Positions 2,764-58,782 of a DNA stretch of 64,000 bases are shown piece after piece. Both the position numbers and the translations under genes were made by a program. The notes below the pieces were generated by a model, which saw only the letters and a list, made by a program, of their open reading frames with translations, was not told where the DNA came from and did not search any database. Origin of the DNA: Piromyces finnis finn (Eukaryota > Fungi > Neocallimastigomycota); the NCBI GenBank assembly GCA_002104945.1, contig MCFH01000062.1, positions 245,321 through 309,320 of the forward strand, in the 5' to 3' direction. Every line of letters starts with the position of its first letter. Position 1 is the first letter of the stretch.

Positions 2764-2829
<66 letters not shown>
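2750..2829. repeat. (ATT)n microsatellite
   Basis: Visible ATT run with one GTT interruption. It marks the downstream end of the block duplicated at about 7283. Confidence 0.95.
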
Positions 2830-2832
<3 letters not shown>

Positions 2833-2954
2833 CTATTTATATAATATATTCAATTAAAAATATCTATATCTACAAAGTTTAAACTTTTCTTGTTACTTTT
2901 TTTTTAATAAAAGATTATTAAAATTAATAAACTGTAAGTTTTTTTTTAGCAATA

Positions 2955-7200: not shown

Positions 7201-7427
7201 TTAAATTAATTTATAATTATAATTATTGTATAATACTATATATTATATATTATTATCATTATGATGAATTATTATTAAGTATTATTATTATTATTATTAT
7301 TATATCTATTTATATAATATATTCAATTAAAAATATCTATATCTACAAAGTTTAAACTTTTCTTGTTACTTTTTTTTTAATAAAAGATTATTAAAATTAA
7401 TAAACTGTAAGTTTTTTTTTAGCAATA

Positions 7428-12408: not shown

Positions 12409-13048
12409 TCATAAATATGAATTATATAGTTCAAACTTCGATCTTTAATATTTATAGTTTTCTTTTTTTCTTTTATATTTCTAAACCTTTAATAGAAAAG
12501 TATTTCATTATCATAAATAATCATATTCTTAATTCCTATTTTATTTCTACTTACAATTTAAATAATAAGTTCAATTATTTTTAATTTTATAATTAAAAAT
12601 TTATAAAAGGATCAATAAAATATTTGAAAAAAAAAAATTAAAAAAGAGGAAATCAATCCACCAATACAATTTAACTTAATTTTTAAAAAAAAAATGAAAA
12701 AAAAAATTATTATAAAAAATTATTATTTATTATAAAAAAAGGACATAAAACAATTCATGATTTTTTTTTTTTTTATTTTTTTATTAGTAATATGGACTTT
12801 AAAATTATTATTAAAATTAATAATGCAAAAAAAAAAAAATATAAATACGTAGTTATTTCACCTTTTTTTTTTTAAAATTTCTATTTACCTACCCAAACTA
12901 AAATTTTATATCATAAATTTATATGAATTTATATAGGTATATTGATTATTATCAAATATTAATTGAATAGAAAAGAAAATACTTTAATTCTTCAGAAATA
13001 AATCATTTATTATTATTATTATTATTATTACTTTTTTATAATAGAAAT

Positions 13049-14413
13049 ATGGATAATAATTATAATAATCAAGATAATAATGAAATTCCTTACTTACATT
13101 ATGCTTATAAAAATAATTATATAAATATCTTAAAACGTCTAATTACAAAAAATAATGAGTCGATAAATGCAAGAGACAATAAAGGTAATACTTTATTACA
13201 TATTGCATGTCAAAAAGGAGACAAAGACATAGTAAAATGTTTGGTTGATAATGGTGCAAATATATTTATTCAAAATAATAATGGAGATATACCAATAACT
13301 TTAGCAAAGAAGAATGATGATAAAGATATTATTAGCCTTTTAAATACAGAAAATGAAAATATACTCTTTTTACGTGAAGCTATCAAGAAAATAGGTATAA
13401 AAGAAAATATTAAATCCATCCAAGTTATATCAATTATTCATCCATTTAAAAATACTTCAAATACTAATGAAAGAAAAATAAATATAAATACCCAAAACAG
13501 TAAAGGATTAACTTTATTACACTATGCTTGTGAGCAAGGAAATGAAAACATAGTTAAATATTTAATTAAAAAAGGAGCTGATACAAATATTAAAAGTAGT
13601 AATGGAGGTATATCATTACACTATGCATGTAAATCAAAAAATGATAATGTTAATCTTGTTAAATATTTAATTGAAGCTATAGGATTAGATATCAATATTA
13701 AAGATAGGCATGAAAAAATACCATTTCATTATGCATGCTATAAAGGAAATGAAAATATAGTTAAATATTTAATTAAAAATGGAGTAGACCCAAGGATTAA
13801 GAATGATTATGGAAGAATGTCATTACATTTTGTATGTGGAGCAGAAAAAGAAAATATTAATCTTGTTAAATATTTAATTGAGGATATAGGATTAGACATC
13901 AACATTCAAAATAAAGATGGTTGTACACCACTGCATTATGCCTGTGAGCAAGGAAATGAAAATATTGTGAAGTATTTAATTGAAAAAGGAGCTGATACAA
14001 GTATTAAGAATAATAATGGAAGGATATCATTACATTGTACATGTAAAGCAAAAAGAGAAAGTGTTAATATTGTTAAATATTTGATTGAAAAGAGAGGACT
14101 AAACATCAATATTAAAGATAATTATAGATTTACACCTATACATTACGCATGTTATAAAGGAAATGAAAATATAGTTAAATATTTAATTAAAAATGGAGTA
14201 GATCCAAAGATTAAGAATGAAGATGGAAGAATATCATTACATTTTGCATGTGGAGCAGAAAAAGAAAATGTTAATCTTGTTAAATATTTAATTGAGGATA
14301 TAGGATTAGACATCAACACTCAAAATAAGGATGGTTGTACACCATTACATTATGCCTGTGAGCAGGGAAATGAAAATATTGTGAAATATTTGATTGAAAA
14401 TAAAATAAAATAG
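13049..14413 (+). CDS. Ankyrin repeat protein (about 12 repeats), C-terminus cut by a frameshift
   Basis: TPLHYAC..GNENIVKYLI..G.D repeats, intronless. One more ankyrin repeat (KIDVNIQDNYRRSLLHYTYIKGNDTLIKYLIKN) continues in another frame to the TAA at 14539-14541. Confidence 0.9.
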   Translation: MDNNYNNQDNNEIPYLHYAYKNNYINILKRLITKNNESINARDNKGNTLLHIACQKGDKDIVKCLVDNGANIFIQNNNGDIPITLAKKNDDKDIISLLNTENENILFLREAIKKIGIKENIKSIQVISIIHPFKNTSNTNERKININTQNSKGLTLLHYACEQGNENIVKYLIKKGADTNIKSSNGGISLHYACKSKNDNVNLVKYLIEAIGLDINIKDRHEKIPFHYACYKGNENIVKYLIKNGVDPRIKNDYGRMSLHFVCGAEKENINLVKYLIEDIGLDINIQNKDGCTPLHYACEQGNENIVKYLIEKGADTSIKNNNGRISLHCTCKAKRESVNIVKYLIEKRGLNINIKDNYRFTPIHYACYKGNENIVKYLIKNGVDPKIKNEDGRISLHFACGAEKENVNLVKYLIEDIGLDINTQNKDGCTPLHYACEQGNENIVKYLIENKIK

Positions 14414-15513
14414 ATGTAAATATTCAAGATAATTATAGAAGGTCACTATTACATTATACATATATTAAAGGAAATGATACCTTAATTAAATACTTGATTA
14501 AAAATAAAAAAATAAATATTAATTTTCAATTATCTAATTAAAAAATATGTACTATTCTAATATTTAGGAACATATAAATAAATTATTAAGTTGAAAAAAT
14601 ATTGCATTATTTTCAAATTACACTATTGATAGAAAATTATTAAAGCATATTCTTTAATATTTATCTAAATTTATAGAAAGTAATATTTTATTAAATATTG
14701 GTCTACTTTTTTAAAAAAAAAAAAAAAAAAAAAAAGAAAAATACTTTAAACATATTAATTAGTATACTATTTACAAATCTACATCTACATATTTACATAT
14801 ATAATAAAATATAATTTTAAATACAAGTTATTGTAAAATATTAAGAGTATTAGATAAAGAAGGTTTATGGGTTTAGAATAATTAATTTGACATTTTGTAA
14901 TATAACTAATTATTTTTTTATTATTCATTTTTTTTATTGTAAAAAAAGTTTTAGAAAATGGACTTCAATTAATCCATTTTACATTAAATCTACTTAATAT
15001 TTTTAGTTTTTTTCATCTAATTTTATTAAAAAAAAAAAAAGAACACATATGAATATTAGTTTCATTATAAAAAGAGGAAAAAAGTAAATGAATATATAAA
15101 TAAATTTTTATTTAAAAAATATATTCTAACTCGTGTCTATAATAATAATATAAATCTAAAATAATAAATAAATAATAATATGGACAATACCTTTATTTTT
15201 TCTTTTCTTAAATAATCATTGACATTTGATTTTTTTTATTTCAATGATCAATTTATTTTATATATTATTAATTTATGTTATTTATTTATATTGTAAAAAA
15301 AAAAAGTATAAATACGTAGTTATTTCACTTTTTTTTATTTAATTCTCTTTAACTACAAAAATTAAAGTTTTATATTATAAATATATATAGGAATACTGGT
15401 TACTATCGAATACTAATTGAACAGAAAAGAAAATACTTTAATTCTTCAGAAATAAATCATTTATTATTATTATTATTACTATTATTATTATTGCTTTTTT
15501 ATAATAAAAATAT

Positions 15514-16077
15514 ATGGATAATAATTACGATAATCAAGATTATAGTGACTACGTTTAAGGTTTTTTCGAATGATGTGTTACACAGCTAAGAGTATGATAA
15601 CATTTTAAAGGTTACTATAAATATACACCATTACATTGTTCATGTGTAATAGGGAATGAAAATATTGCTAAATATTTAATTAAAAAAGGAGCAGACATAA
15701 GTACTAAAAGTTATGATGGAAGCATATCATTACATTGTGCATGTGGTGCAAAAAAAGAAAATGTTAATCTTGTTAAATATTTAATTGCGGATATAGGATT
15801 AAATATCCGTGTTAAGGACAACTATGGAAAAACATCTTTACATTATGTATGTATTTAAGAAAATGAAAACATAGTTAACTATTTGATTGAAAATAAAAAA
15901 ATAGATATCAATATTCAAGATAAGTATGGAAAAGCACCATTACACTATGCATGTTACAAAGAAAATAGAAATATAATTAAATATTTAATTGAAAAAGGTG
16001 CTAATAAAAATTTAATAGATGATAATAGATTTACACCATTATTTTATATTCAAAAGAAAATAAAAGAGTGTATTTAA
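15514..16077 (+). pseudogene. Decayed, internally deleted paralog of the 13049 ankyrin gene
   Basis: Same ATG GAT AAT AAT start context and shared upstream blocks (ataaatacgtagttatttcac; gaaaagaaaatactttaattcttcagaaataaatcattt). Early TAA after 14 codons; ankyrin repeats YTPLHCSCVIGNENIAKYLIKKGAD...; in-frame TAA at 15856-15858. Confidence 0.85.
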
Positions 16078-18282
16078 TATTTAATTAGAAAATTAATAAT
16101 TATAAAACAAAAAAGTCAGATAATGAGATGCATTAATAATAGAATATTGTAATACTTTTTTTAAATTTAATGTATAGTGATTTAAAAAAATATATATATA
16201 ATTATAGACATAAATAGTTATTTCAATAAATATACAAATAAGAAAATTAAATACACTCTGACCCTTTTATTCTATTAAATAAATTATTGTAATTACCATT
16301 TTTATTTATGGTGTACATTGTATTGTTCTAGTTTATTAAATTTATTAAAATTTTAAACATAAATTTTTCTTTTCTATTAAAAAAAAAAAAATTGTATTCT
16401 TCATTTAAAGGATATTTTTATATAAAAAAATGAATATTATGTTAAATATATAAAAAAAATATATATATTATTTGGAATATTAAAAAATTCTTTTTTTTCT
16501 GAAAAAGATGAAATTAAAATTTTATAAATATAAATAATTTAAAATTTATACCAATATTCCATTAACAAAAATACAGAAATTTAAGTATTTTCATCTTTTA
16601 AAAAAGAAAAAAAAATATATAAATACATTATATCATGGAGGTATCAAAGAAAAAAGAAAACATTGTTAAATATTTAATATAATAAAACGATTTATTAATA
16701 ATATACTAATATCTAAGTATTAAACATAAAAAGAAATTATTGATTTTTATAAATATATAATTTAAAGATAGTAATAATAAAGATTGATGTACATATTGTC
16801 TTTGTACAAATAATCAAAAAATATAGATGTTATTTTAAATATAAATAAAAAATAAAAATAACAATTCAACTAATGGTAACACCACTTAATTATAGTATAA
16901 TTATAAATTTAATGAAATCATTTCTTTTTTAAAAAAATAATAAAGAATTAAAATATAAATTAATATTTTTATATTATATTTAAATGAATTTATTAATTTT
17001 ATATTATGCTTAAGATTAAAAAAATAAAAAAAAACATGTTTTATTACCATTAATTTATTATGTATTTAATATGATATATATTATAATTATAATACTTTTT
17101 TTTATGAATGTTAGAATACATGGTTTAAATATAAAATTCAAACACATACACCATCTTTAAGAATTATATTAATTAAAATTTAATAACTCGGTGACACACA
17201 TAATATAATATAAATTATTTATTTTGTTATTTAAATGCCATATAGTTAATCATTCTTTTGTTATTTATAATAAAAACATATAGATATTAATTACAAATAC
17301 TCATTGACATTAATGATAAAAAAAAGGAAATGAATCATTTTTGAATTTTCAATTTAAAGAAATTATTATAAATTATACAGAAAATTAATTAAAAATATTA
17401 ACCTGATTTTAACCAATAAAATAACATTGAATTGGCATGAGGAATTTAACTATTTATAAAAAAGTAGCCAATAAAATGGCATTTAAATAGCACGCAGCAT
17501 TTATTTATTTATTTATTTTTTATTCATTATAATTAATGTTTTTTAATATTTTATTATTATAAATAATAATACTAATACTAACACTAATACTACTAATACC
17601 ATTACTAATAATAGTAATGATTAGAATAATAATAATTTATCTTTTAATAACAATTTTTAATTATTCTATTGTATTTTATATTCTATTATCTTATATTTAA
17701 AATATTCATTTATATTCCTATAGATAATGTATTTCTGATATTTTAAGGTTAATTCTTATTATGAAAATTATAATTATTATACCTTTATAATAATGCTGTC
17801 AAAAACATGAATAGTTTCACAAAAAGTCATTAATTGATATTCACCAATAATAACATATATTCTGAACATCTGAATGAATAAATAAATATTGGCATTTAAC
17901 AAGTATAATTCCATAAATTAAAAAATCATAAACGTACATGCATTCCTCATTTTATATAAATTTTATTAATACTATTAACCAATTATAATATACTATTTTA
18001 ACATTGATTCTTCATTAAATATAATATACACAATAAATGAAATAAATTCTTTATATAAAAAATAAAATTATATAAATACTGAAAATAAGTATCAATTGTA
18101 ATTCATACCTTCATTCAATAAAATATTAATTCATAGATAATTCTATAATATTTTCTATTATTATATTATTAGCTTTATCATTCATAAAATTAAAACAAAA
18201 AAAAATAATTTTTATTAATATCAAAAAAAAAAAAAAAAAAACTAGATTAATATTTTTTTTAATTTAAAAAAAAAAAATCAAT

Positions 18283-20125: not shown

Positions 20126-20550
20126 CGTATCGACTATCAATATAAAGCTTTTTACTATTACTTTCTTCAAATTTACTTCACACATAAAAATAAATATACC
20201 TAAAAAAAAGATATAAATATATTCTATCTTTAATAATTTAACATTACAATGTTATACATTAGTATTTATTAATTATAGAAAATAATTAATAAATACTAAT
20301 ATATATAATAATTAATAAAAAATTTTTTGTTAAAAACAAAAATAATCTACATTTCCAATTTCTAATATATAAAAATAATAAATATTTTTAAGTTGTAAAT
20401 AAAAAATTATATAAATTCCTATTTTATATTTTATGGTATCTAATAACTGAAATATTTAATAATATTGAAAAATAGTAATATTATAAATCATTATACCATA
20501 ATAAAATTGCTACAAAAAAAAAAAAAAATCCATTATAAAAAAATTTTTTT

Positions 20551-21643
20551 ATTTAAAATTAATTATTATCACTGTTTTTTTTTTTTCAATTTTTTATAAT
20601 TATTATTAAATGTATTTACAGTTAATAAAAAAAAGAAAAAGTAAAATTTAATCATAGTTAAAACATGATTTACATGCTTTATGACTTTATAAAAATAAAA
20701 ATAAAAAACATTAAATTATTATTTAAAAATTAAATAAAAATTGGTCTATTACTTGTAAGTATATAATTAAGAAATATAAAATAATAATAAATAAATAACT
20801 CTATTAATTTATTATCAAGTAAAAGTAGTATTATTTAATAAAACGAAGAAAAAACTATTGTAAAATTGTTGTAAAATTGTAAAGTTAGTATTTAATTGTT
20901 ACTTAAAATATTCATAAATAAATCAAACTTTTCCATTTAATAAAAAAAAAAGAAATAAAATAAAAGAATAAATAAATGTTGATTTTTAAAGACCTAAAAA
21001 AAATATTGCTTTTTATTTTTATTTTTGTTTTTGTTTTTGTTTTTGTTTTTGTTTTTGTTTTTGTTTTTGTTTTTGTTTTTGTTTTTATTTTTGTTTTTGT
21101 TTTTGTTTTTGTTTTTGTTTTTGTTTTTGTTTTTGTTTTTGTTTTTGTTTTTGTTTTGTTTTTGTTTTTGTTTTTGTTTTTGTTTTTGTTTTTGTTTTTG
21201 TTTTTGTTTTTGTTTTTGTTTTTGTTTTTGTTTTTGTTTTTGTTTTTGTTTTTGTTTTTGTTTTTGTTTTTGTTTTTGTTTTTGTTTTTACTTATATATT
21301 CTTGAAATTAAAAAAAGTTTACTAATCATGCACTTTTTATTTCCATTTTTGTGTTATTAAAATTATATATTTTAAATAAAATTGAAAATAATTAAATTTT
21401 ATTCTATACGTCTTATTCTATATATAATCTATATAGAATACAAAAATACTTAATTTTTAAATAATAACTTTTTGTTTATAATTTTTTTTTTTATTTTTTT
21501 TTTTACTTTCTTTTTTAATATTATAAATATACTTTAGTTATGATTACATTTTACTTTTTCTTTTTTTATTTACCATTGTAAATACATTTAATAATTATAA
21601 AAAAATTGAAAAAAAAAACAGTAATAGTAATTAATTTTAAATA
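20551..21643. repeat. Imperfect inverted repeat (arms about 20551-20660 and 21538-21643) enclosing a microsatellite
   Basis: atcactgttttttttttcaattttttataattattattaaatgtatttac...gaaaaagtaaaatttaatcat is matched by the reverse complement of 21538-21643. Confidence 0.75.
21010..21290. repeat. (TTTTTG)n hexanucleotide microsatellite, about 46 units
   Basis: Directly visible, with a few TTTTTA units and one 5-mer variant. Confidence 0.97.
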
Positions 21644-21713
21644 AAATAATTATTGTAAAAATTAAAACTAACAAACGTGATAACATTTATTATTACAATT
21701 ATTACATTGGATT

Positions 21714-22068
21714 TTATAATAAATAAAGATGACAAAAATCGAAATAGTTGATGAATTCATCATTTGTTAATGCATGTTGATTTTTACCTAGTATAATATG
21801 TTGTACAATTGTATATATCATATTTTCTGATTTTGATGCAGGAATTATTGTTTTAATTCTTGATTTTAAATATAATTCATTTTCTTTTAGCAATGAGGAT
21901 AAAACACAACTATCCATAATAACCTCTTTCAAGTGTTCTATTTTCAAAATATCAATTGGAATTGTTTGTAACTTATTATTTTGTAAATTCAATTTTTGCA
22001 ATTCCAAAATGCTAGATATAAATAAAGGTAATTCTGTCAATTGATTATCACTTACATCTATTTCTTTA
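21714..22068 (-). pseudogene. 5'-truncated fragment (C-terminal domain only) of the intronless LRR family
   Basis: 6 differences in 108 aa versus the C-terminus of ORF 46187-46732. Homology stops near 22068 with no upstream LRR array. Confidence 0.85.
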
Positions 22069-23925
22069 TTTTTAATATAATAAAGAAAAAGTATGCGAAT
22101 TTTTAATTTTTTATTATTTATATGATAATTAATTGAATATTTAATTATTGGATAAAAAAAAAAAAAAAAAAAAAGAAAAAGTAGAAAAAGTTAATTCATT
22201 TTAATTTATATATATTTATTAATATACTAATTGTTAATAATAAATTATCTTTGGTATAAATGATCAAATTGGCCAGAAATAAATATTTATAGTACAAAGA
22301 TCTTGTATAGTTTTTTTTATTATTATCATTATTTTAAATTTTTAATTTTATTTAATAAAGATCTATTTAAAATATATTGATAGAAAGGATATATTGATTT
22401 ATTATCAAGTATAAATAAAAATAAAATATTATTTAATTGAAAAAAAAGGATTGTAAAAGTATTCTGAATTAATTTTATAATAGAGTAAAAGAATAAAATA
22501 ATACTTTAAAACGAAAAAGCATTGCTTACAAAATGTTAAACTAATTATAATAATGAAAGGTTATTGAAGAATTAATCATAATTAATTATTATGAAATAAA
22601 TTTATTGTTTAGAAAGCATATTTTAATAAGGTTTTTTAACTACATTAATACATTAAAGATTAAGGCTTGTCTCTAAAACTACGATATTTAATACAAATAC
22701 AATAGATTTGTGTTAGGATTATGTACTATTTTTAAAATATAAAGGTAATTATTTTGATTATTAAAGATATTAATTATATTTAACTAAATAAAATTCATTA
22801 TTTATTTTATTTCATTCATTAATAATACTCTTATTTTTATAGTTATATATATCTATTCATTTCTTCTTTATCGATGGACTGGACATAATCCTTCTAATTA
22901 AAAAAATAAAAGTGGATGCTTAAAAAGAAAAAAAAGAATTCTTTTCTGCATAATTAAAAAGAAATTAAGGAGTAAAAGAACCGAAAGTTTAAATTTATAG
23001 ATTTTTAAAAAATAGATTAAATTTTAATTTCTATTTTTAATTTTTAAATTAAATAATAAATTAAAAAATATTAAATAAACTTTTATCCATGTGGAATTTA
23101 ATTTAAAGAAATTATAAATACAGTTTCATCCAATAATAGTAAGAATAAAATTTTATTAACAACCAAAAAAATTTAATTAATTTGACATTAATTATTCATT
23201 ACATTACATTATTTTATAAATATTCATTTATGTATTTGTATTACATTTTAAGTAATGGAAAAAAAGCCATAAAGAATTTGTTTTGATCATGTTAAAATTT
23301 TCATTCTAAACTTTGTTTAGTTTTCTATTATTTATATAGAAAGCATGGTATATAATATTTCAATAGTAATAATACTCTATAAGAATTAATAAAAGTTTAT
23401 TTAAATTATTAAAGATTTTTTTTTAATATTTCTATAAAATAGTTGAACTTTTTCCTATTTAAATATTTATGCAAGAAGGATGTTCAATCCTTTTTAAAAC
23501 ATTTTAAAACATTTTTTGTTCCATATTCATTTTCAATAGTTTTTAATATTAGAATATATTTTGATTTTATTAATTATATATGTTTATAATATATTATAAA
23601 TATATTTATTCATAGATTAATATATATTAAATTATTTTTTTAAAGGTAAACACAACATTTATTAGTCACAAACTTAAATTATTAATATTTTTTTCTTTTT
23701 CTTTTTTTGTATGATCCTTTTCATAAAATAATTATTATATTGAAATATATTATTACCATTTATTATAATATATTCATTTAATTTATTTTATTAAAAATTT
23801 TTTTCTTATAAATAAACAATTTTTTGACTTTCTTTTTTTTTTTAAATGCTTAAAGATTTTCTATATTAAATAAAAATAGAAAATAAATAAATATTAAGTA
23901 TTAAATAAAAAAAAAGTAAAATAAA

Positions 23926-36848: not shown

Positions 36849-37421
36849 ATGGGAAAAGCAAAGGAAAAAGAAAATGAAGATAAAATTTTATTAGATTAAT
36901 TAATTTTTAAATTTAATAAAAGTTTAATTCAGAAATAATATTTGTTATTAAAAAGTTCCCTAAAATACCTTAAGGAAACTTAGGATATAAAAATTTTAAT
37001 AACATAATGCTTAGAATTCTGAGTTGCTATCTTTATATAAAAGAAAGGGAAAAAAAAAAAAAAAATTAAGAAAAGAATTATAATTAATTTTTTTATTAAT
37101 TTTTGGATGAAAATGAATATTTCTTAAAAATCAGGTATTTTGCTTTATTTTTAGAAGATATTGTAATATAGAAAACTTAAATAATCTAAATGTATAAAAC
37201 AGTTTTGTATTAGAATTATTAGAAAAAATAGAAATTTTGAAAGATGTGATATATTTAAACCTAGAATGCAATTTTTTTTTTTTTTTAGAAATAGCAAAAG
37301 AAATGGGAAATTTACTCAATTTAACTACTTTAAATTTAGGTCATAATTTTATTTCGCAAATCTCAAAGAATATGGGAAACCTACACGATTTAATCAGTTT
37401 GAATATTGAAGAAAATTATAT
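36849..37421 (+). pseudogene. Heavily decayed copy of the intronless LRR gene family
   Basis: atgggaaaagcaaaggaaaaagaaaatgaagataaaattttattagatta matches the start of ORF 45627. Two LRRs survive at about 37290-37420 (KEMGNLLNLTTLNLGHNFISQISKNMGNLHDL). Confidence 0.75.
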
Positions 37422-37917
37422 ATGCGAATGCAGAAATAAATAGTGAAACCTTTATTAAAAAATTTTTCTATTTAATAAAGTTATAGCGTAGGAAGAATGT
37501 AATAATTGTTTATTAATTCTTATAAGACTTATAAAGAAAAAGAATCATTTTTAAATAAATAAAAGATGTAATAAAAAAGTTATTAATTATGATAGATTTT
37601 TAAAAGTAATTATTAATAAAATTATTTAATCATTTATATTTGTTATTATTATTATTATTATATATAATACTTATTTTATAATTTTTTTTTTAAAGATAAT
37701 TATAATATTAATTATGGAATAAACAGAAAAAATATAATAATTAATTAATAAATTACATGCTTATTCAACAATGCATGTTAATTATTAAATAAATATAGTC
37801 TTTTCTTCTTTTCTTAATTTTTCAATAAATATTTAAAAAATAAGAATTTATTATGAAAATTTGATTATATATACACAATAAAATTGTTTATTTAAATTGT
37901 AAATAAATAAATTACCG
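37422..37917 (+). repeat. About 500-bp direct repeat R, copy 1
   Basis: Near-identical to 47076-47576, from atgcgaatgcaga to aaattaccg. Confidence 0.93.
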
Positions 37918-38008
37918 CTTTTAAAAATAAATATTTATAATTAATTTGTCGTATATTAAAAATATGTATAAACGAAACCTTTAATAATAATAATAAAAAG
38001 ATATTTTT

Positions 38009-38623
38009 TTACCAATGAATAATGAAACCAAATTTACATCCTAATTCATTAGCTTTACAAAAACATTTTGATACTTTAAATTCGTCATAATTATATATTG
38101 GATGAGGAATTTCTATTACTGAAGATTTAATTTCATTTATCGATTTTCGAACAGATATCGCTTTGGATCCAAATAACATAAAAATAACAGGATGATCATT
38201 GGAAATATATTCTACAAGATTATTAATAAACGGTTCCCATAGTAAATAATGATCATATGAAAAATTATTACTAGTTTGGGTGAAGCAAAAATTACATAAA
38301 AATATTCCATTATTTAACCATTTATCTAGATGATGATTTAATGGTCGTTTAAAAGATTTAACTGTACTTTCTAAATTGGCATAAATACGTTCTAAAAGTA
38401 CAGGAGGTTCATTATTTTTAGTTCCAAATGCAATATCACAAATGTCATATTGTTTTTCGTATGGTTTATCCCCAACCATAACAACTTTAATATCTTCTAA
38501 TTTAATATATTTGAAAACTCCAAATACATTCTCTATTGATGGATAATAATAAGTATTTTTTAATTGATTATAAATATGTGTTACTAATTTTGAATTTTTA
38601 ATAAAGAAATCATCCCAAGTCAT
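38009..38623 (-). CDS. Divergent family-1 uracil-DNA glycosylase-like protein, probably giant-virus derived
   Basis: 204 aa, intronless. YYPSIENVF, DIKVVMVGDKPY (cf. KVVILGQDPY), DIAF, WLNNGIFLCN, WEPF, VIFMLFG.KA, PHP, CFCKAN, terminal IHW. Confidence 0.85.
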   Translation of the reverse strand: MTWDDFFIKNSKLVTHIYNQLKNTYYYPSIENVFGVFKYIKLEDIKVVMVGDKPYEKQYDICDIAFGTKNNEPPVLLERIYANLESTVKSFKRPLNHHLDKWLNNGIFLCNFCFTQTSNNFSYDHYLLWEPFINNLVEYISNDHPVIFMLFGSKAISVRKSINEIKSSVIEIPHPIYNYDEFKVSKCFCKANELGCKFGFIIHW

Positions 38624-39913
38624 TATTATATTAAGATTTTAAAGCATTTAAAAATAAACAGATAAATAAAAAAAAAAAAAAATAAAAATTTTGATGTATA
38701 TTAAAATTGCTGTTTTCCTCCAGTAATTTTTCAGCTAATATAATAATTAAAATTTTATATTTGACCTGAAAATTAATTAATGGTAGTGGTGAAACATTAT
38801 GATAAAGATAAAAATAAATAAATATAAAATGTTGATATTAAAACTAAAACTAAAACTAAAACTAAATATACATAATATATATTTTCCTTTTAGATTTCAT
38901 TTTTTTTTAGAATCTTTATAGTTTATTATATTATAAAATAGTAATTAGAGTAATTAAAAAAAAAAAAAAAAAGGTGGTGTCAATGATTAATAAATTCAAC
39001 TGAAATATTATTTTAATTATTTGCTATTTTTTTTTTGAACTATTATGTTCTATCTTTTTAATATATTATTTTCTACTATTTCTACTATTTAAAAATTACT
39101 ATTTTTCTATTATAATAATACATGACTTTTTTTCTTATAAAATACATCATATTTATAGAAATGTTCTATGGATGAATCATTTTTCTATTTCTATTAAAGT
39201 GTTTCCTACATTTATAATACATTATATAAAAATTAATTACATTACGTATACATTGATTGATCCTATGATTAAATTAATTATATTATTATAATATTTTATT
39301 ACTTTAAATTTTCATATCATGTTTTATAAATATGAGTAACTTTTTAATTCTATACTAATTGTAACAAGCCAAAAAAAACAATCTTTATGTTTTATTTAGA
39401 TTTAACAATAAAACTAATAAAATTGTATTAATAAAAAATAAATTAAAGATATATATCTTATATACTGCATGACCATTTCTCAATTCTGATATTATTAAAT
39501 GATATAAAAAAAAAATTTGACTTTTTTTTTTATATATAATATAGCTTTTGAAGGTTTAATTCATACATTCCTATTTTATTTATAATTTATTTATTTATTA
39601 TTATATATTAGTTTATTTTTTTTCATTTTTTATCTATTATTTTATTTATCTTTTTGTTTAATCTATTTATTTATTAGATATTTATTATTATTTATATTTA
39701 TTATTTAATTGTATAATTTATTTAATAAAAAGAATAATTTCTTTTAAAAAAACTTCTATCTTTCTTTTTTTTTTTTTTTTTATAAAAAATAAAAATAAAA
39801 AAGAAGAAAAACTAATCTTTCTAATAATTTGTACATATATATATATATAAAGGAAAAACTTAATAGTTAATTTATAAAATAACTATTAAATTATATTGGA
39901 ATAAATATTTTTT

Positions 39914-42877
39914 CTATAATTCAATAATTTTTGGTTTTGACATTTGATATAATTCTGGTAATGAAGAAAATAATTTAAACATTAAAAATGTTTGATATGG
40001 CCTTTCATGACAATATTCTTCTAAATTATTATTCGTAACATCGTCAATTACATTCTTCATTATATCCTTAATTTCTTTGGCGTTATTTTTATATAATCCT
40101 GTAATATTTTCTGGTGTAATTATTTTAAAATCTTTTATTGATTTTAATTTATCTTCATTTTCATCAAAACATAATGAATAGAATAATGTTTTTATTAATT
40201 CTTTTTTAACAGAAAAGTTGTAAATATTTCTACCACGATTTATTTTTCGTAGATTCTTTATAGTAGATGAATTTTTATTTTGAATGCATGACTCATTACA
40301 AGAGTTTAGATATCGAATGGCGAAATCTGTACATTGAAAATAAACAAATCTTTTTTTATTATTAATTCGTTTAGAACGTTCATCACTGTAATGTTTTTGA
40401 ATAATCAAAGATATTTTATTTAATTCTGGATTTTTCAACAATGTCCATTTTTTAAATGATGCATCCGTGTGGTAAATGGTATTATTAAAATCATTAATAG
40501 ATTTATCTTTATTACTAAGCATAAGAAGAACTTTCTATAGTTGAAAAATAAGATATATAATATTTACCATCATAGCTTAACCAGTAAGGACTAAAAAAGC
40601 ATTTTATATTTTTTATGTTGTGTTTTAAACTGTATTTTAAAATTTCTAATACCTCTGTGTATGAATATTTAGATAGATATTCGAAAAATTCTTTATTTAA
40701 ATTATTTTCTAATAAATTTTCTAGTGTGTTTATTTTCTTTTCTATTTCGGATTCTTCTTCATCTAAATTATCTGTCTTCGTATTTTCTTTGTCATAGTTT
40801 GAAATTAACGATTTCGATGAAGCGATCATTTGATCAAGGATATTATTTGTTCCGTTTATTTTGGTGGGATCAATAGTATTTATATAAATCCGAGGGTTTA
40901 TAGTCATACTTAAATAAATGAAACCCGCTGAATAATCCAAGATTCTATTGTTTATTATAATGGTATTTGTTTTAATAGTGTTAATTATTTCTTTAATAAT
41001 TGAATTATTTATTATAGGTAGCTTATTTTTTAAATCATTAATATTTATAAAAGTACATGAATTATTGAATATTGTTTTCAGATAGTTACATATTAAAGAA
41101 AGAAATATTGGTATTTTTCTTTTCAAATAAAGGGAAGAATATTCAACAGAATTACTGGTATAGTTTATTGGTAATTTATTAAAAACTAAATTTTCCATTG
41201 AAGCATTTTTTAATGCTTTATAATAACTTAAAGATTGATTATATTTATCTTCACATTTTACATATTTATAATAATCAATACTGTAATTAATTGAATTAGA
41301 ACAAGGTATGGATGGATCATACGCCATATGTAGATAGACATTAACATTTCTGTGTTTTTGAGGCAAAGCACTATGAGAGTTCACTCTACGAATCCTACCA
41401 ACAATTTGATTTAATTTTTCATAGTTCCAATGAGGTGTTAATACATGTAATTGACGTACATTCATAATATCAACACATTCTGATAATACATCACTTCCAA
41501 TAAGTACTTTAATGGTTGAGCCATCTTTATTACTTTTATCATTAAACAGATTTAAACGCTCTATGACATTTGGACATAGTTTTTTATCACCAGTTATAAA
41601 TGTAAAATTCCATTTATTTTTATTTAAATTTCTTCTTATATTTGCTAATTCCGGATAAGCCATTTCTTTTTTCTGAGTCGTTTCTTTTTTAAATCTGGAT
41701 GCAGATGCCTTATCATAAACATAATTGCAACCCATAGCACAAAGTAAAGAAGCGAAATAATATATTCCAACGTCTTCTATAATATTACAATAGATAAAAA
41801 TAAGACCATTTGATAAATCAGAATTATTAATAGTATCTAAACAATGATATAATTTGCAACAATAATCTTTTAAATTAATTGATTGTTCTTTAATAATTTT
41901 TTGAATATTTGGATTTTTATGAATAATTTTGTCATCTTTAAGTATGTAATGATTATTATTTTTGATAGTAGAATTAGTGGACTCGTCTAAACTAAGAACA
42001 CCAAGAGTTGCTTTCATTAAATCCATTCCAATTTCAATGTTACACAATTTTTTTGAATCTTTTGTTAAACTTTGGTATCTTTGAAGCTGAACTCCATTCA
42101 TAGGAACTTTATATATATTATATTTATCAATACCTGGAATGAATGAACCAATAAAATTAACAATTGTATCTTGTGGATTTAACCCATAGTACGATACATG
42201 ACCCTTCATTATTTCTTCTACTTTTTCTGGAGTAAAATTAGTAGTATTATGTAGAGGGTTGGTTCTATTAATTTTATTAAACTTGAAATTTCATTATAGT
42301 TATCGAATATTGGAGTGGCAGACATAAATACTACTCTTGAACTATGAATACAATTTAGAAATTGATAAATTCTTTTGTAGATGAATTTTTCATCTTTAGT
42401 GTTTCGAAAATGATGTATTTCATCGATAATAAAAAGTCTATTTTCATATATCGAAACATCCTTTATATTTTCAACCGATTTACAAAATGAAAAAAAAAGT
42501 ATAAAACTTAATATATTTTTTTATAAATTGTTGATAATTTTTAACATCTGCTGGAGGTTTGTAAAAGTTAAATGTGTAGGAATACAATGATTCCACACGA
42601 CTTGTAAAATTTATTATTGATTATTTAGAATAATTGTTGGCTTTTTATAATAATTAATAAAATTTAATAGTATCCATAGTGCAGTAAATGACTTTCCTGA
42701 ACCTGGTGGATGATAAATTAAAAGTCTTTTAATATTTTCATTATCCGTTGACATATACCTTATTGGCAATATTTGATATCGTTTCATATGAAGCTTTTCT
42801 TCTAATAAATCTTCATTAGAATATATTTCCTTAAATTCACGATAAGTATGTAAACTATCAATATTTGGATATAACAT
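39914..42877 (-). pseudogene. D6/D11-like (VETF small subunit / NPH-I family) SF2 helicase of Nucleocytoviricota type, broken by frameshifts
   Basis: Motif I LLIYHPPGSGKS (ORF 42614-42877). Motif II DEIH at 42413-42424 and motif III MSATPIFDNYNEISSLIKL at about 42314-42325, both found by hand in an untracked frame. Motifs V-VI GSDVLSECVDIMNVRQLHVLTPHWN...QIVGRIRRVNSHSALP (ORF 40515-42209). ORF 39914-40522 is the likely C-terminal part. About 990 codons if joined. Confidence 0.85.
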
Positions 42878-43814
42878 AACCGAAATTTAAATAATTATTA
42901 TAATTTTTTTTATATATATATTTCAAAGGATTTAATTTTATATTATTTTATAAATAATTCATTTACTATTAGACCATTATATTTTTTATTAATAAATAAA
43001 AAAAAACTTTATAACTACAATAAATATTACATGAAATAAAAAACTCTGAAAAATTAAAATTATTATTTAATTTTCTTATTTTTTTTATCAAATACTAATT
43101 TCGTTTTTTATATAAAAAATCTTAAAAATTTTGAATAAATAACAAAAAGTTTGGGATTATAGAAATTTCTAAAAAAAATATAAAAAGGAGAATAATTTTA
43201 ATATTTTTATAATATATAAAAAAATAAAATAAAAAAAAAAAAAAGAATAATAAATAATAAATAATTAAACCTTACAATATTATTCCTTTTTTTATTATAA
43301 TTAAATTTTTAAAAAACTTAATTAATAATAGATTAAAAAAAAAAACATGGTAAATTTGGTCAAAAAAATTTTTTTTTATTATTAAAAATATATGAATAAT
43401 TATTATATATTATTATTATTTTAATGAAAAAATAATTATTATTATGAAAAGTGTTTTTATTTAATAGAATATTATATATATTGTATAAATATATATAATA
43501 TTATTTAGCACTGTTATATAAAAAAAAAAAAAAATTCAATAAATTAGAATATTCTTTTTTCATTAAAAAAGAGGAATAATACCAAATAATCTTTAAAAAT
43601 TTAATTTATTTTTAATTAAAAAAATTTTATTATTTTATTTAGAATATTCTAAGAATAAAATGAATCCTGTCAAAAAAAAGTGTTTTTTTTTTTTTTTTTT
43701 ATGTAGGGTATCTAAGAAAAAGTCATAATTATTATAATTAGAATAATCAATGAAACTATTAATCTACTACACCTTTTATTACTTTGTTATATAAGAGTAA
43801 TGTAGTTTTGTTAA

Positions 43815-44234
43815 ATATAAATTTAATATGTATATATTATATTTTCTCATTTTAATGTAGGAATTATTGTTTTAATTCTTGATTTTAAATATAATTTGAT
43901 TTCTTTTAATAATTAAAATAAAACGCGACTACCCATAATGACCTCTTTCAAGTTTTCTATTTTCAAAATATTAATTGGAATTGTTTGTAACTTATTATTT
44001 TGTAAATTCAACTTTTGCAATTCCAAAAAGCTAGATATAAATAAAGGGAATTCTGTTAATTGATTATCACTTACATCTATTTCTTTAGAACTCTTCCAAT
44101 TTATTATGTCATAAGATAATTCTGTTAATTAACTCTTTTTTTACTTAAATTTATTTTATTATAAAATTCAACAAGCATTAACAAATATTGAATTCATTAG
44201 CCATTTTGATTTTTTCTATCTATATTTAATATAA
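43815..44234. pseudogene. 5'-truncated LRR-family fragment with an inverted 5' part
   Basis: About 43815-44155 is the reverse complement of the equivalent of 46310-46630. About 44170-44234 (QALTNIEFISHFDFFYLYLI*) and the 3' flank are on the plus strand. Confidence 0.75.
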
Positions 44235-44249
44235 AATTCATTGTAATAA

Positions 44250-44955
44250 TTATAATAATAAATGTTATCACGTTTGTTAGTTTTAATTTTTACAATAATT
44301 GTTTTTATTTAAAATTAATTACTATCACTGTTTTTTTTTCAAATTCTTTATAATTAATTGTTATTAAATGTATTAAAAAAAGTATATAAAAAGAAAAAGT
44401 AAAATGTAATAGATGCATTAGTAATTAAAATATGCTTTACATGCTGTATGACTTTATACAAATAAAAACATAAAAATAAAAATAAAAAACAAAAGTTATT
44501 ATTTAAAAACTATATTTTAAAATAATAAATAGGTCTATTATTTGTAAAAATATAATTAAGAAATATAAAATAAAAACTTAGTATTTTTGTATTCTGTGTA
44601 GATTATGTATAGAATAAGACGCATAGAATAAAATCTAATTATTTTCAATTTTATATAATTTAAATATTTAAAATATATAATTTTAACAACACGAAAATGA
44701 AAATAAAAAGTGCATGATTAGTAAACATTTTTTAATTCCAAGAATATATAAGTAAAAACAAAAATAAAAACAAAAACAATATTGTTTTTAAATCTTTAAA
44801 CATCAACTTTTGTTTATTCTTTTATTTTATTTCTTTTTTCTTTTTATTAAATGGAAAAATTTGATTTATTTAAAAATATTTTATTTAAATAACTATTCAA
44901 TATCTCATTTTACAATAGTTCATTAAATAATATTACTTTTACATCTACTTGATAA
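44250..44955 (+). repeat. 3'-flank repeat of the LRR family, homologous to the reverse complement of about 20810-21700
   Basis: Collinear matches such as aaatgttatcacgtttgttagttttaatttttacaataat, agaataagacg, aaaaagtgcatgattagtaaac and ttaaatggaaaa. Confidence 0.8.
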
Positions 44956-45626
44956 ATGAAGTAATATTCAATTTTTATAGATATCTTTTAATATGCCTTT
45001 TTAATACTTTTTATTTAAGAATTAATAAATGAATAAATAAATAAATGAATGAATAAATGGATTGTTCAATAACTAATTATATATTAATATTGTTATAAGA
45101 TATTTATGTAATTAAAATCAATTAATATTAAATTCCACAAGAAGCATTACTTTTTAAAATTCTTTTTATCTTTTTATTTATTACCTAATCCTTGAAAATT
45201 AATTAAATTTACTTTTTTTTTAGTTGTCCAAAAATTTAATAATTTAAATTCTAGGTCAAACTTAAGCCAAAAGCAAAAATTTTTATGGGATTCAGTTGTT
45301 GTTTAAAATAAGAGAATTTTATTAATAAAGTTAATAAAAAATATATATAAATTTAGACATGTTTTTATTTTAAATAAAAAAAACATATAAATTTAGACTT
45401 AAATGTTTTTCTTTATTTTTTAAATAATAAAATTATAAATTTAGACATGCTTTTCTTTATTATTATAATAAAAAAATTGTATAAAAGAAAGGCTAAGGTA
45501 CAGGAAAAAATGATAAAATAAATAAAAAAGAAAAGGAATTGAAATTTAAAGAGTTATGAATGAACCAAATTTTATTATAAAAAGGAGAAAAAAAAAGATA
45601 GAAAAGGTAAAAAATTTAAAAACAAA

Positions 45627-46732
45627 ATGGAAAAAGTAAAGGAAAAAGAAAAAGAAGAAAAGACTTTATTAGATTATTTAAATATAAATTTTGATATTAA
45701 AAAGTTTGATTCGGAAATATTAAGGATTATCAAAGAAATTAGTGAAATTCCCCTAAATAATTATGCATTTAAAAATTTCAAAAATGTAATACCTAGAATT
45801 ATTAGATATTATGCTTTATTGAAAGAGAGTGAAAAGAGTTTTTTACGAACTGGATTAAAAACTTTTTATTGTTTATTTAAAAAAATGTAAATAATGAACA
45901 TTCTGATTTTTTAATAAATAGTTATCCATATATAAATGGAATTTTAAATGACATCGAAATATCATACAATTTAATAAATTTAAATATTGAATACTACTTT
46001 GTATTAGAGTTATCAGAAGAAATAGAAAATTTAAATAATTTGACAGATTTAAACCTTGAATAGAATTATATTTCAGAAATACCAAAAGAAATAAGAAATT
46101 TACATAATTTAATTACTTTAAATCTTGAACATAATTTAATTACTGAATTACCAAAAGAAATAGGAAATTTAACCAATTTAAATGCTTTGAAATTAAGTAG
46201 TAATCATATAAATGAATTACCAAAAGAAATAGGAAATTTAATAAATTTGATCCGTTTTTATGCTGATGAACATTTATCTATTAAAAATTATGAAAATCTT
46301 TATAGCAAAAATAGTATAAACTTGAGTAAAAAAGAATTGACAGAATTACCTTATGATATAATAAATTGGAAGAGTTCTAAAGAAATAGATGTAAGTGATA
46401 ATCAATTAACAGAATTCCCTTTATTTATATCTAGCTTTTTGGAATTGCAAAAATTGAATTTACAAAATAATAAGTTACAAACAATTCCAATTGATATTTT
46501 GAAAATAGAAAATTTGAAAGAGGTTATTATGGATAGTTGTGTTTTATCCTCATTATTAAAAGAAAATGAATTATATTTAAAATCAAGAATTAAAACAATA
46601 ATTCCTGCATCAAAATCAGAAAATATGATATATACTATTATACAACTTATTATACTAGGTAAAAGTCAACATGCATTAACAAATGATGAATTCATCAACT
46701 ATTTCGATTTTTGTCATCTTTATTTATTATAA
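45627..46732 (+). pseudogene. Intronless intracellular LRR gene with a 1-nt frameshift (A7 run, 45879-45885) and an in-frame TAG (46061-46063)
   Basis: ORF 45627-45890 joins the LRR frame if one A is added. About 4 PKEIGNL-type repeats; C-terminal domain homologous to that of 56614-58782. Confidence 0.85.
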
Positions 46733-47075
46733 AATCCATTGTAATAATTGTAATAATAAATGTTATCACGTTTGTTAGTTTTAATTTTTACAATAATCGT
46801 TTTATTAAAAAATGTGTTGAAATATATTTTATATTTTTATTCATTATATTAAAATTTTAATACTACTACTATAATAATTAAATAAAGCTGAATGATGAAT
46901 AAAGAATATTTAATTTTTATATCACTTGAAATTGCATTATATAATACGTACGAAGAAACGAAGAAATAAATATATTATGTATTAATATTAAGACAGCTAT
47001 TTATAATACAATTTAAACAAATTGTATAATATTTTAACTGTTTTTTTGTATAAAAGTTTTCAATATTTTAAAACA

Positions 47076-47576
47076 ATGCGAATGCAGAAGTAAATAGTGA
47101 AACCTTTATTAAAAAATTTTTTCTATTTAGTAAAGTTATAGCGTAGGAAGAATGTAATAATTGTTTATTAATTCTTATAAGACTTATAAAGAAAAAGAAT
47201 CATTTTTAAATAAATAAAAGATGTAATAAAAAAGTTATTAATTATGATAGATTTTTAAAAGTAATTATTAATAAAATTATTTAATCATTTATATTTGTTA
47301 TTATTATTATTATTATTATTATATATAATACTTATTTTATAATTTTTTTTAAAGATAATTATAATATTAATTATGGAATAAACAGAAAAAATATAATAAT
47401 TAATTAATAAATTACATGCTTATTCAACAATGCATGTTAATTATTAAATAAATATAGTCTTTTCTTCTTTTCTTAATTTTTCAATAAATATTTAAAAAAT
47501 AAGAATTTATTATGAAAATTTGATTATATATACACAATAAAATTGTTTACTTAAATTGTAAATAAATAAATTACCG
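47076..47576 (+). repeat. About 500-bp direct repeat R, copy 2
   Basis: Near-identical to 37422-37917. Confidence 0.93.
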
Positions 47577-49174
47577 TCCGGTTTTAAAAATAATTAAATT
47601 CTCATTAACTAGGTCTAGTAAAATTATATTCATTTTAATATGCTTTATAATCAATAATTTTAGACTGGCAAATAATTATTAAACTTAATTATATTTTTCA
47701 ATATATTAAATAAAAAAATTAAAATTAATATTAAAATAAAAGAGCAAAATTACTACATTATAAGAAATAATTATATTTATATTAAAAGTATTTCTTGTAC
47801 TATGATATTCAACTAGACCATATACATAATTATTCAATTAAAAATCTATTCTTAATAATAACATTAATTTCTTGTAAGAGAGTTTTTTTTGTTTTTAAAA
47901 ATATTCTTAATATAATCAAACTTTTTTAAAATTTTGAATTATTAATAGTTTATGAAAGCTGGAATATTAGTAAGTAGAAATAAGAATTATTAATTAATAA
48001 ACTTAATTATATATAATAAGTAATATAGATGTTATTTAAAACTTTTCATTTTGGTAGTATAACGTACTGAAATATTATATCCAGGATTTTGAAAATATTT
48101 AAATTATTATTCTTTTCAGTTTAAATTTCTTAAAATAAATAAAATAATATTAGATATTATAATATAAATTTTCTTAAATTTGTAAAATTACAAAAATAAT
48201 TATATTTTTCAATATTTAATAAAAATAATTGTTAATTGCTAATGATTATAATATTAAAAATCAAGAATTTATTATTATATTTTATATTATTTATAATATA
48301 TATTATATTTTATTAAATACTAATGAATAAAATTACATTTTACTTTTATTTTATCTTAAACAATAAATCAATTTTGATATTTACTTATTGTCAAAAACTG
48401 AATAATACATTTGAATTTTTTAACACTTTATAATAACAATCTAAATATTTATTACAGTAAGATGAGAAAAAATTTTTTTAATAATTAAATTAAAAGAATT
48501 CCACTTTTTTTTTTATAAAATATAAATACTATTATTATCTTAATTATTATAATTATATTTATGAATATTATTATTTATAATATGTTAGCATATTTTTGAA
48601 AAACGTACTATAATATGCTTTATATATATATTTTTCAAAATATTTCAATATATTATAATTTTATGATTTAAATTTGATTAAAATTTTTATTTTTAAATTA
48701 CATTTCATAAATCAATTTAAAAATTTTTTTTTTTTTTAAACTTTTTGTGCTTCTATAAATTATAAGCAAAGTTCTAAATCATTATTATTATTTTAATCTA
48801 AATTTTTTTATTATTTTAAAAGAAATTAATAGAACAGGAATTTTTTTAAAATTTTCTTAATATTATAAAATATTTTTTTTACTCATTAATTTGTTGTAAT
48901 ATTATGAATATTGTGATATGGTTTAATTAATGAAAAGTATTATTTATTAATTTGAAGTTATTTTTTATATTAAATTAATTTCATTTATTGTGTAAAAATG
49001 TATTATTGTATTTGGTTAGAAAAATATATTGATAAAATTTTTGTTTGATTATTATTTCTTTTCTTTGTATTTTTATTTAATTTATTACCTAAATTATTTT
49101 ATATTTTAAATCGTGGAATATCTAAAAAATTTATTTAATATTTTTGTTAAAAAATATATTATTATAACAAAATA

Positions 49175-55524: not shown

Positions 55525-56613
55525 AGGTAAAACAATCAAAGTTTATACTTTATATATTGAAAATTTGATAATAAAATATTTGTAGTTATTATTACACTTT
55601 TTTTTTATTAAAGATATACCATCACTGTTATCATTACTTTTTATTTAAAAATTGTCATGATAAACTATACAAAATAGTTGTTCATTAATTCATTATTATT
55701 TTTAAAGCAACTATTGTATTATTGTATTATATTTATTCAAAATACATGTTATCCTTTTATTATGAAATTTTATGTTTACTATTTAAATTTTTAATTGTAA
55801 TTAAAGTACATTTTTATGTTTTTTTTTCTTTCAATAAACAATCATTTTTTTTATATTTTCTTTGTTTAAATGTTACATTTTATATGACATAAGAAAATTT
55901 AAAAAGAATATTAAAAATATAAAAAGATTTTAAAACAACTACACAATATCAAAATATAATTTTTATACATGTTCTTTTTACTCTATATTGTATATCAGAT
56001 GAAAATATAAATGTACTGAAAAGTATTATAAGTAAAATAAGCATTATAAAATAATTAATTGATTATTCTAAAATGAAAATAAAGCAATTTTAAAATTAAA
56101 TCAAAGAGTAAAGAACTTTAGCTATTTTTATTCTAACATAAAGAAACAATTGGTTATTAAACTACAATTAGTGAATTAAAATATTTTTATAAATATAACT
56201 AGTGGCTTGAATGAAAATAAAATTTAATACAAATCAAATTTGATAAGAGTTTTAGGTAAAATGAATTTTTTTTATATCACTAATTTTTATTATTGTATAT
56301 AAATATAAAATTTAATTGACTCTACAATATATTAAATTTATAAACAACCAACCACTAAAATATAAAATATATGAAGTCAAAAAAAAATAAAAAAGAAAAA
56401 ATAAAGCTAAACAAAAAAAAAATATTATTTTACTTTGGAAAATAATAAAATAGGAAAATAGTAAAAGTAATATTATAATAATAAAGTGTTTAAATAAAAT
56501 ATGAAATATTGAATAAAGTAAAAGATATATTATAGAAAATAATAATATAATAATAGTATTGTAAAAAAAGGACTATGACTATAAATATATAAAAATAGTG
56601 AATAGTTATAATA

Positions 56614-58782
56614 ATGGGAAGTAACACTTTAAATAAACTATTAAAAAGAGAAAATTCAAATATTCAACAAAAAATAATTTCGGATGAAGATATAAAAATA
56701 TATGAATCTGAAATAATAGATATTATGATTGATAAATTAAAAGAAATTCATGTGAGAGAATTCACCTTTCAAAATCTAAAAAAACTAATAATAAATAATG
56801 AGCGATATAAGCATCTTAATGTTGATAATAATAGGAAAGAAAAAATTAAAAATCTTCTTTCTATTTTATTTGGAAAAGCTATTAATATGAATATATTAGA
56901 GATTCATGATATATATACAATAGAATTTCCAAAAGAAATAGGATGTTTAACCAGATTAACTGAGTTGAATCTTAAACACAATAATACATCTGAATTACCA
57001 AAAGAAATAGGAAATTTAACTAATTTAGTGAATTTAATTCTTGAACGTAATAATTTAACAGAACTACCAAGAGAAATAGGAAATTTAACTAAATTAACAA
57101 ATTTAAGTCTTGTTTATAATAAATTAAATAAAATACCAAAAGAAATAGGAAATTTAACACTTTTGACTAGTTTAAATCTTAATGATAATAGAATAAGTAA
57201 ATTACCAAAAGAAATAGGAAATTTAACACTTTTAACCAGTTTAAATCTTTGTCAAAATCAAATAACCGAATTACCAAAAGAAATTGGAAATTTAAAAAAA
57301 TTATCAATTTTAAAGCTTAAACATAACCAAATAATTAAATTGCCAAAAGAAATAGGAAATTTAACTAATCTAGAATGTTTGAAACTTTTTAATAATAAAT
57401 TAATAGAATTGCCAAAAGAAATAGGAAATCTAATAAACTTAACGAACTTGTCCATTGAATATAATAATTTAATCAGATTACCAAAAGAAATTGGAAATTT
57501 AATCAATCTAAGATATTTAGAACTTAATTATAACAATTTAACAGAATTACCAAACGAGATAGGAAATTTAACCAATTTATATAATTTGCTTCTATCGTAT
57601 AATAAATTAACAAAATTACCTAAAGAAATAAAATATTTAACTCGTTTAACTATATTGAATCTTAATGATAATAGAATTAGTAAATTACCAAAAGAGATAG
57701 GCGATTTAACACTTTTAACTAGCTTAAATCTTTGTCAAAATCAAATAACTGAATTACCAAAAGAAATTGGAAATTTAAAAGAATTAACAATTTTAAAACT
57801 TAAACATAACCAAATAATTAAATTGCCAAAAGAAATAGGAAATTTAACTAATTTAAAATGTTTGAAGCTTTTTAATAATAAATTAATAGAATTGCCAAAA
57901 GAAATAGGAAATTTAGTAAACTTAACGAAATTATCTATTAAGTACAATCGTATTATCAAACTACCTAAAGAAATAGGAAATTTAATCAATCTAAGATACT
58001 TTGAACTAAATAATAATAATTTAACAGAATTACCAAAAGAAATAGGAAGTTTAACTAATTTATATAATTTATTATTATCTTATAATAAATTAAGTGAATT
58101 ACCAAAAGAAATAGGAAATTTGACTAAATTAGCCAATTTAGAATTAAATTTTAATAATTTAATAGAGCTACCAATAGAAATAGGAAATTTATCTGATTTA
58201 CGTAGTTTATATCTTACTAATAATAAAATAACAAAATTACCAAAAGAAATTGTAAAACTAGCTGGATTACTTAGGTTAGAGGTTGATGCATCTTTATCCA
58301 TTACACAATATGGATATACTTTAGAAAGTAAAGAAATAAATTTAAGAAAGAGAAAATTAACTGAATTACCCTATGATATAATTAATATGAAATATTCAGA
58401 GAATATGGATATAAGTAATAATCAATTAACAGATTTGCCTCCACTTGGTATTAGTTTAAAAAGACTAGATATGCATAATAATAATTTCCAAACGATATCA
58501 AACAATATATGGAGTTTACATAATTTAGAAGAAGTTATTTTGGATAGTAATATTTTTTCTTCCCAATTAAAAAAAATTAAATTAGATCCAACCGTAAAAA
58601 TTAACAGAATAGAACCTGTCCTAAGATCGGATAATTTTATAACTGTCATCACCATCCTTCTTAATATAAGTAAAATGAAATATCCACTAACAAATAATGA
58701 TTTAATCAAAATATTTGACATCTCTCATGTTTATTTATCGCATAAAATATACATTCCAGAATGTATTAAATCAATCTTATAG
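56614..58782 (+). CDS. Intact intronless intracellular LRR protein: about 100-aa N-terminal domain, about 20 23-aa LRRs, family-specific C-terminal domain
   Basis: 722 aa. Repeated LPKEIGNLxxLxxLxLxxNxLxx, no signal peptide. C-terminus (INL.K..LTELPYDIIN...LTN.D.I..FD..H.YL) is shared with the 21.7, 44 and 46 kb fragments. Confidence 0.93.
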   Translation: MGSNTLNKLLKRENSNIQQKIISDEDIKIYESEIIDIMIDKLKEIHVREFTFQNLKKLIINNERYKHLNVDNNRKEKIKNLLSILFGKAINMNILEIHDIYTIEFPKEIGCLTRLTELNLKHNNTSELPKEIGNLTNLVNLILERNNLTELPREIGNLTKLTNLSLVYNKLNKIPKEIGNLTLLTSLNLNDNRISKLPKEIGNLTLLTSLNLCQNQITELPKEIGNLKKLSILKLKHNQIIKLPKEIGNLTNLECLKLFNNKLIELPKEIGNLINLTNLSIEYNNLIRLPKEIGNLINLRYLELNYNNLTELPNEIGNLTNLYNLLLSYNKLTKLPKEIKYLTRLTILNLNDNRISKLPKEIGDLTLLTSLNLCQNQITELPKEIGNLKELTILKLKHNQIIKLPKEIGNLTNLKCLKLFNNKLIELPKEIGNLVNLTKLSIKYNRIIKLPKEIGNLINLRYFELNNNNLTELPKEIGSLTNLYNLLLSYNKLSELPKEIGNLTKLANLELNFNNLIELPIEIGNLSDLRSLYLTNNKITKLPKEIVKLAGLLRLEVDASLSITQYGYTLESKEINLRKRKLTELPYDIINMKYSENMDISNNQLTDLPPLGISLKRLDMHNNNFQTISNNIWSLHNLEEVILDSNIFSSQLKKIKLDPTVKINRIEPVLRSDNFITVITILLNISKMKYPLTNNDLIKIFDISHVYLSHKIYIPECIKSIL

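Follow-up and report, generated by a model that had tools for sequence, protein, structure and literature searches.

A decayed UDG-helicase fragment, very probably derived from a fundsalphavirus element, in an LRR-gene cluster of the anaerobic gut fungus Piromyces finnis

In a 64-kb (64,000-nucleotide) stretch of Piromyces finnis DNA, hereafter the window, a uracil-DNA glycosylase (UDG) gene and a broken D6/D11-type helicase gene lie next to each other on the minus strand. Since no relic of a polymerase, RNA polymerase or primase turned up in the window, the locus is a decayed two-gene fragment, situated within a host LRR-gene cluster. It is a new, decayed member of an already known, virus-derived family, and very probably a chromosomal insertion that came from the fundsalphaviruses, a family of Nucleocytoviricota-related elements of gut fungi. 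Both genes were located where a preliminary description of the sequence had put them, co-oriented, with the helicase 1.25 kb upstream of the UDG. The locus is made up as follows.

37345..37965, plus strand: left host flank, consisting of an LRR-gene relic and duplicated host DNA
38009..38623, minus strand: intact open reading frame with a family-1 uracil-DNA glycosylase fold, reading GDKPY where the canonical motif is GQDPY
38624..39874, no strand: spacer between UDG and helicase, very AT-rich (7-18% GC), in which no relic of other element genes was detected
39875..42877, minus strand: pseudogene of a D6/D11-type (long, Pimascovirales-like) superfamily-2 helicase, with four frameshifts and one in-frame stop
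43824..44160, minus strand: right host flank, an LRR-gene relic 91% like the LRR copies at 46310-46640 and 21810-22068

The helicase is a single gene of about 1000 codons, running from 42877 to about 39875, in which the superfamily-2 motifs can be read directly (LLIYHPPGSGKS, DEIHH, SATP, NVRQLHVLTPHWN and QIVGRIRRVNSH). Repair of the reading frame, a step already envisaged in the preliminary description, yielded one gene: a frameshift-aware alignment places frameshifts near 42621, 42491, 42243-42255 and 40517 and an in-frame stop at 39914, and all four intact reference proteins used place the same five lesions. Intact relatives are 1004-1040 aa long and agree with the window helicase in 538-571 of 983-991 aligned codons (55-58%). 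One of the breaks falls at a 9-base run and might reflect a sequencing error; the first frameshift is spanned by a contig of 312 bp (depth 2.5) that comes from a second study and equals 42530-42841 without a difference, making one of five breaks bridged by an independent contig among the matches listed. A second, diverged copy of the helicase stretch 41193-42411 is present in a separate run filed under the same organism code (X4, record 27).

The sole PDB match of the main helicase piece is vaccinia NPH-I (E 1.7e-9), and a profile built from 28 sequences scores vaccinia NPH-I (E 1.6e-30) and VETF-S (E 2.8e-16) much better than cellular SNF2 (E 5e-4). In this profile search, 74 of the 7,991 proteins scored passed; the top 31 are of the gut-fungal type, with all 18 that carry a species name belonging to Neocallimastigomycota, and the sole taxon-named row below them is a megavirus. 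The predicted model of an intact relative (pLDDT 70) is closest in fold to long helicases of the D6-like type from Marseillevirus, Pithovirus, Solivirus and an ascovirus, next to a few from other giant viruses, and eight of nine Atlas neighbours are 100% viral, mostly Nucleocytoviricota. By profile, fold and Atlas neighbours, the window helicase is D6/D11-type and Nucleocytoviricota-like, as had been proposed. In trees (FastTree and IQ-TREE LG+G4, no bootstrap), it groups together with the relatives P0035 and P0090 inside a gut-fungal clade that has full support (99-100), and the helicases of two contigs from a viral collection, L080 and L081, join that clade with support 96-97; 16 of 80 viral loci had passed the motif filter for this tree. 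A further gut-fungal-type helicase, slightly short, adjoins a bacterial-looking open reading frame at L001:2186-2824, possibly on a chimeric metagenome contig.

The UDG frame comprises 204 codons, with its ATG at 38623 and its stop ending at 38009, and is open throughout. It matches E. coli UNG (E 4e-20) and is modelled with the family-1 UNG fold at modest confidence (pLDDT 62), with the pocket residues Tyr, Phe, Asn and His present in the window copy; Pfam makes no call on it. The catalytic Asp of GQDPY, whose position we take from the alignment with E. coli UNG and from established knowledge, is missing from its GDKPY motif. Across 56 rows, the window copy and 55 relatives of at least 150 aa, GDxPY occurs in 52 and GQDPY in none, and the UDG of a 35-kb sister record described below, which shares the MSWxxFF start, reads GQSPY. 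Because the family is without the catalytic aspartate, its UDG would more likely be a replication accessory than a normal repair enzyme, by analogy with vaccinia D4, for which an essential role independent of glycosylase activity is reported (PMC2630940). Scores do not part a viral from a bacterial origin, as E. coli UNG reaches 104 bits, the sister-element UDG 103 bits, and vaccinia D4 only a weak match (E 9e-4); the viral origin claimed for this gene in the preliminary description thus finds no backing in score and stands through linkage, by which the window UDG is assigned to the element. The protein is 65-75% identical to the relatives P0012, P0044 and P0045. A UDG scan of viral contigs returned five Bacteroidetes-phage-like loci, an outgroup chosen by the search motif; the UDGs of these contigs (L002-L006) read GDxP at the catalytic loop, by which they were selected.

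Host DNA borders the two genes on both sides. On the left, 37422-37965 is 94.8% like 47076-47627, and this duplication ends about 45-75 bp from the UDG stop. Elsewhere, the window encodes dockerin-bearing (dockerin CBM10) esterases, a phosphate transporter, and ankyrin and LRR proteins, and the species-named close relatives of the two genes are all from Neocallimastigomycota, which supports the proposed gut-fungal host. With host genes and LRR duplications on either side and five lesions within, the fragment is very probably endogenous in fungal chromosomal DNA, as had been suggested. A supposed difference in character between the two genes and their neighbours is not supported: their third-position GC is 0.12-0.16, versus 0.12-0.35 in seven host ORFs, and the neighbouring host genes are likewise single long ORFs, so that being intronless is not distinctive here. 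Nor did other genes of the element appear in the 64 kb, where only two of 18 proteins of the sister record, the UDG and the helicase, found a match by tblastn. No convincing terminal or target-site repeat was seen around the cassette amid AT-rich noise.

Several other features of the window were recorded. The LRR cluster contains intact and decayed genes in both orientations with inverted duplications (20500-22100, 37345-37965, 43800-47630 and 56602-58782), and long inverted repeats lie at 49544-50643/61386-62533 and 50756-51497/54778-55524. An acyltransferase-3 gene, of a family usual in bacteria, is tandemly duplicated (95.7%) at 2728-8799. A chitin-binding-like repeat ORF, recognised by eye, lies beside ankyrin genes at 11749-16100, about 22 kb from the cassette; ChtBD1 and ankyrin labels also adjoin published fundsalphavirus loci on their maps (PMC7017919).

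Fundsalphaviruses were named and mapped in five gut-fungal genomes by Gong, Zhang and Han in 2020, who counted 26 polymerase copies in N. californiae alone and interpreted the elements as viral fossils (PMC7017919); the term was found in this one paper only among the literature searched. Their example map shows UDG, RP1n, methyltransferase, RPB2, D5, POL, RP1c and helicase, and the Piromyces maps keep UDG and helicase apart, one at each end of the core (PMC7017919). By species and exact agreement in bp, rather than by accession, we placed P0035 and P0090 on the mapped loci of 168,386 bp (MCFH01000083.1) and 119,790 bp (MCFG01000208.1; Supp. Figs S2 and S8), and P0012, P0044 and P0045 fit the loci of 64,180, 168,386 and 127,315 bp, which are drawn with a UDG. 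Four loci (64,180, 119,790, 127,315 and 168,386 bp) thereby agree with the contigs of our relatives and show the same gene; a fifth, of 857,073 bp, also agrees in size, but its map is without a UDG (PMC7017919). The window helicase falls inside the fundsalphavirus helicase clade and the window UDG is of the type that the locus maps show. The locus and the published elements have in common the host phylum, this helicase clade, a UDG and the presence of stops and frameshifts, but the locus has only two genes, adjacent, and no DNA polymerase (PMC7017919). As the Pithovirus-related DNA polymerase, RPB1, RPB2 and D5 are missing, we file it as a derived fragment and not as an element; with the group-defining DNA polymerase absent from the window, this filing rests on two genes, and the polymerase-based screen of Gong et al. 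would not list the locus. Since the group had been described in 2020 with UDG and helicase on its maps, the earlier suggestion of a fossil of an undescribed virus is not supported.

In gut fungi both genes occur in multiple, frequently intact copies, with named relatives from five species and two further isolates. In one helicase cluster (51 members, 40 read), 10 of the 15 listed members are on contigs of 30-71 kb, and for one UDG (44 contigs) and one helicase (27 contigs) the longest contig has the same length, 42,490 bp, and apparently holds both genes; some gut-fungal copies are on megabase contigs. A single metagenome scan returned one 3-kb contig, and viral-contig scans with P0029, A1 and P0111 gave no matches.

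The sister-clade record L081, of 35,106 bp, could be covered end to end via four loci (L081, L088, L090 and L092). It encodes split RPB1, RPB2, RPB5, TFIIS, an RNA-primed-type PolB (PF00136), D5, UDG and the helicase, together with a DUF5757 protein, a secreted lectin-domain protein and repeated intergenic DNA; a capping enzyme and an XPG-like nuclease are weak calls. Among the 22 ORFs scanned, nine are without a convincing Pfam family, and none has a Pfam match to capsid, A32 or VLTF3, although a divergent capsid could escape Pfam. The record begins and ends with the same 116 nt, which hints at a circle and no more, since that sequence also recurs as a dispersed repeat. Assemblies of close relatives come as halves of about 17.9 kb, and the contigs listed for the four sister-element clusters consulted do not exceed 35,106 bp. 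'Inverted terminal repeats' of L080 (exact match 127 nt) were considered as evidence of a linear genome and rejected, as L081, 86% identical to L080, carries inverted repeats between genes at both of these positions, with its sequence running on past them.

In an intact element, the helicase may act in the transcription apparatus that the element itself encodes (split RPB1, RPB2, RPB5 and capping enzyme), by analogy with D6/D11 in poxviruses, while the UDG would work with the RNA-primed PolB and the D5 primase. A piece of element DNA probably landed, without its polymerases, in the duplicating LRR-gene cluster, where the helicase presumably decayed after insertion. The 30-70 kb contigs on which intact copies often lie and the 35-kb record without a capsid match hint at a small plasmid-like element, likely capsid-less, that may still multiply, more than at a large-virus fossil. 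A broader reading, which we hold to be nearly as likely as not, is that fundsalphaviruses are not giant-virus fossils but living, capsid-less replicons of 35-50 kb, descended from Pimascovirales-like viruses, with RNA-primed replication (PolB, D5, a non-catalytic UDG and a flap nuclease), transcription of their own, secreted lectin or chitin-binding cargo like that of killer plasmids and many intact gut-fungal copies, of which the window would hold a stranded piece. Against this, assemblies also fragment into short contigs at integrated repeats, megabase contigs hold some of the copies, and the capsid may have diverged beyond the reach of Pfam.

The competing view that the fragment stems from a virion-forming, Pithovirus-like large DNA virus of gut fungi, its capsid genes lost or too divergent, strikes us as unlikely, though it deserves weight: Pimascovirales helicases are the best fold matches, Gong et al. 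took the elements for viral fossils (PMC7017919), and the unassigned nine of 22 ORFs in the sister record leave room for it. However, capsid, A32 and VLTF3 are without a match in that record, the capsid and A32 trees of Gong et al., which may show only some hits, carry no gut-fungal label (PMC7017919), nothing above 35,106 bp is listed in the sister-element clusters, and copies are many and often intact. Of the 'large DNA virus' put forward in the preliminary description, viral ancestry is upheld, whereas the size is doubtful, the nearest fully read relative having 35 kb and no capsid match.

Domestication of the UDG by the host while the helicase decayed would fit an intact frame set against five helicase lesions; at the helicase lesion rate, however, a gene of such short length would escape lesions in 36% of cases, so the open frame is no evidence of domestication, and the odd motif is family-wide rather than particular to the window copy, making this improbable. 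We give very little credence to an origin from a yeast-type linear killer/helper plasmid (virus-like element) with a D6/D11-like helicase. Such plasmids do occur outside yeasts with Nucleocytoviricota-derived helicase, RNA polymerase and capping genes (PMC13348850), and chitin-binding and lectin cargo is drawn on fundsalphavirus maps (PMC7017919), but their polymerase is protein-primed, whereas the sister record has a PF00136 PolB with D5 and UDG. That the locus is a chimeric contig or contaminant is highly unlikely: no contig among the matches listed spans the whole helicase, yet codon GC is host-like, duplicated host DNA ends at most 75 bp from the UDG stop, relatives come from five gut-fungal species and two further isolates, and exact pieces recur in a second study.

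As one more decayed copy of a published family, the window locus has its value as a pointer to intact relatives. If these are capsid-less, they would represent a second giant-virus-to-plasmid route in fungi, independent of the yeast killer plasmids, and a multicopy DNA element native to anaerobic gut fungi, which to our knowledge lack good genetic tools; assemblies and reads already available allow a test of this. A description of gut-fungal elements as capsid-less replicons was not met in titles or abstract starts among the matches listed, subscription papers and bioRxiv supplements lying outside that search. Gut fungi are unnamed in the main text of PMC13348850 and PMC13533422, and the three fungi covered in PMC5294986 include no gut fungus.

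Compared with known systems, the helicase shares Walker A, DExH, SAT and motif VI with vaccinia D11 (NPH-I), D6 (VETF small subunit) and the D6-like helicases of Pithovirus, Marseillevirus and ascovirus, its best sequence and fold matches, but identity is 14-18% in the top ten fold alignments, the window copy is broken, and its length is about 1000 aa against 631-637 aa in vaccinia. The UDG has the fold and pocket residues of family-1 UNG, with vaccinia D4 as functional analogue, and differs in the GDxPY that replaces GQDPY in 52 of the 56 family rows. Mycodnaviridae are likewise Nucleocytoviricota integrated in the chromosomes of zoosporic fungi, but they encode a capsid, exceed 200 kb and lie near Imitervirales, and the paper describing them calls earlier fungal elements distant (PMC13533422). 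The cytoplasmic virus-like elements of yeasts and non-Dikarya are similarly capsid-less, with their own RNA polymerase, capping enzyme, helicase and secreted cargo, at 9-13 kb and with a protein-primed polymerase (PMC13348850), whereas the sister record, of about 35 kb, combines an RNA-primed-type PolB with D5, a UDG and a flap-nuclease-like gene.
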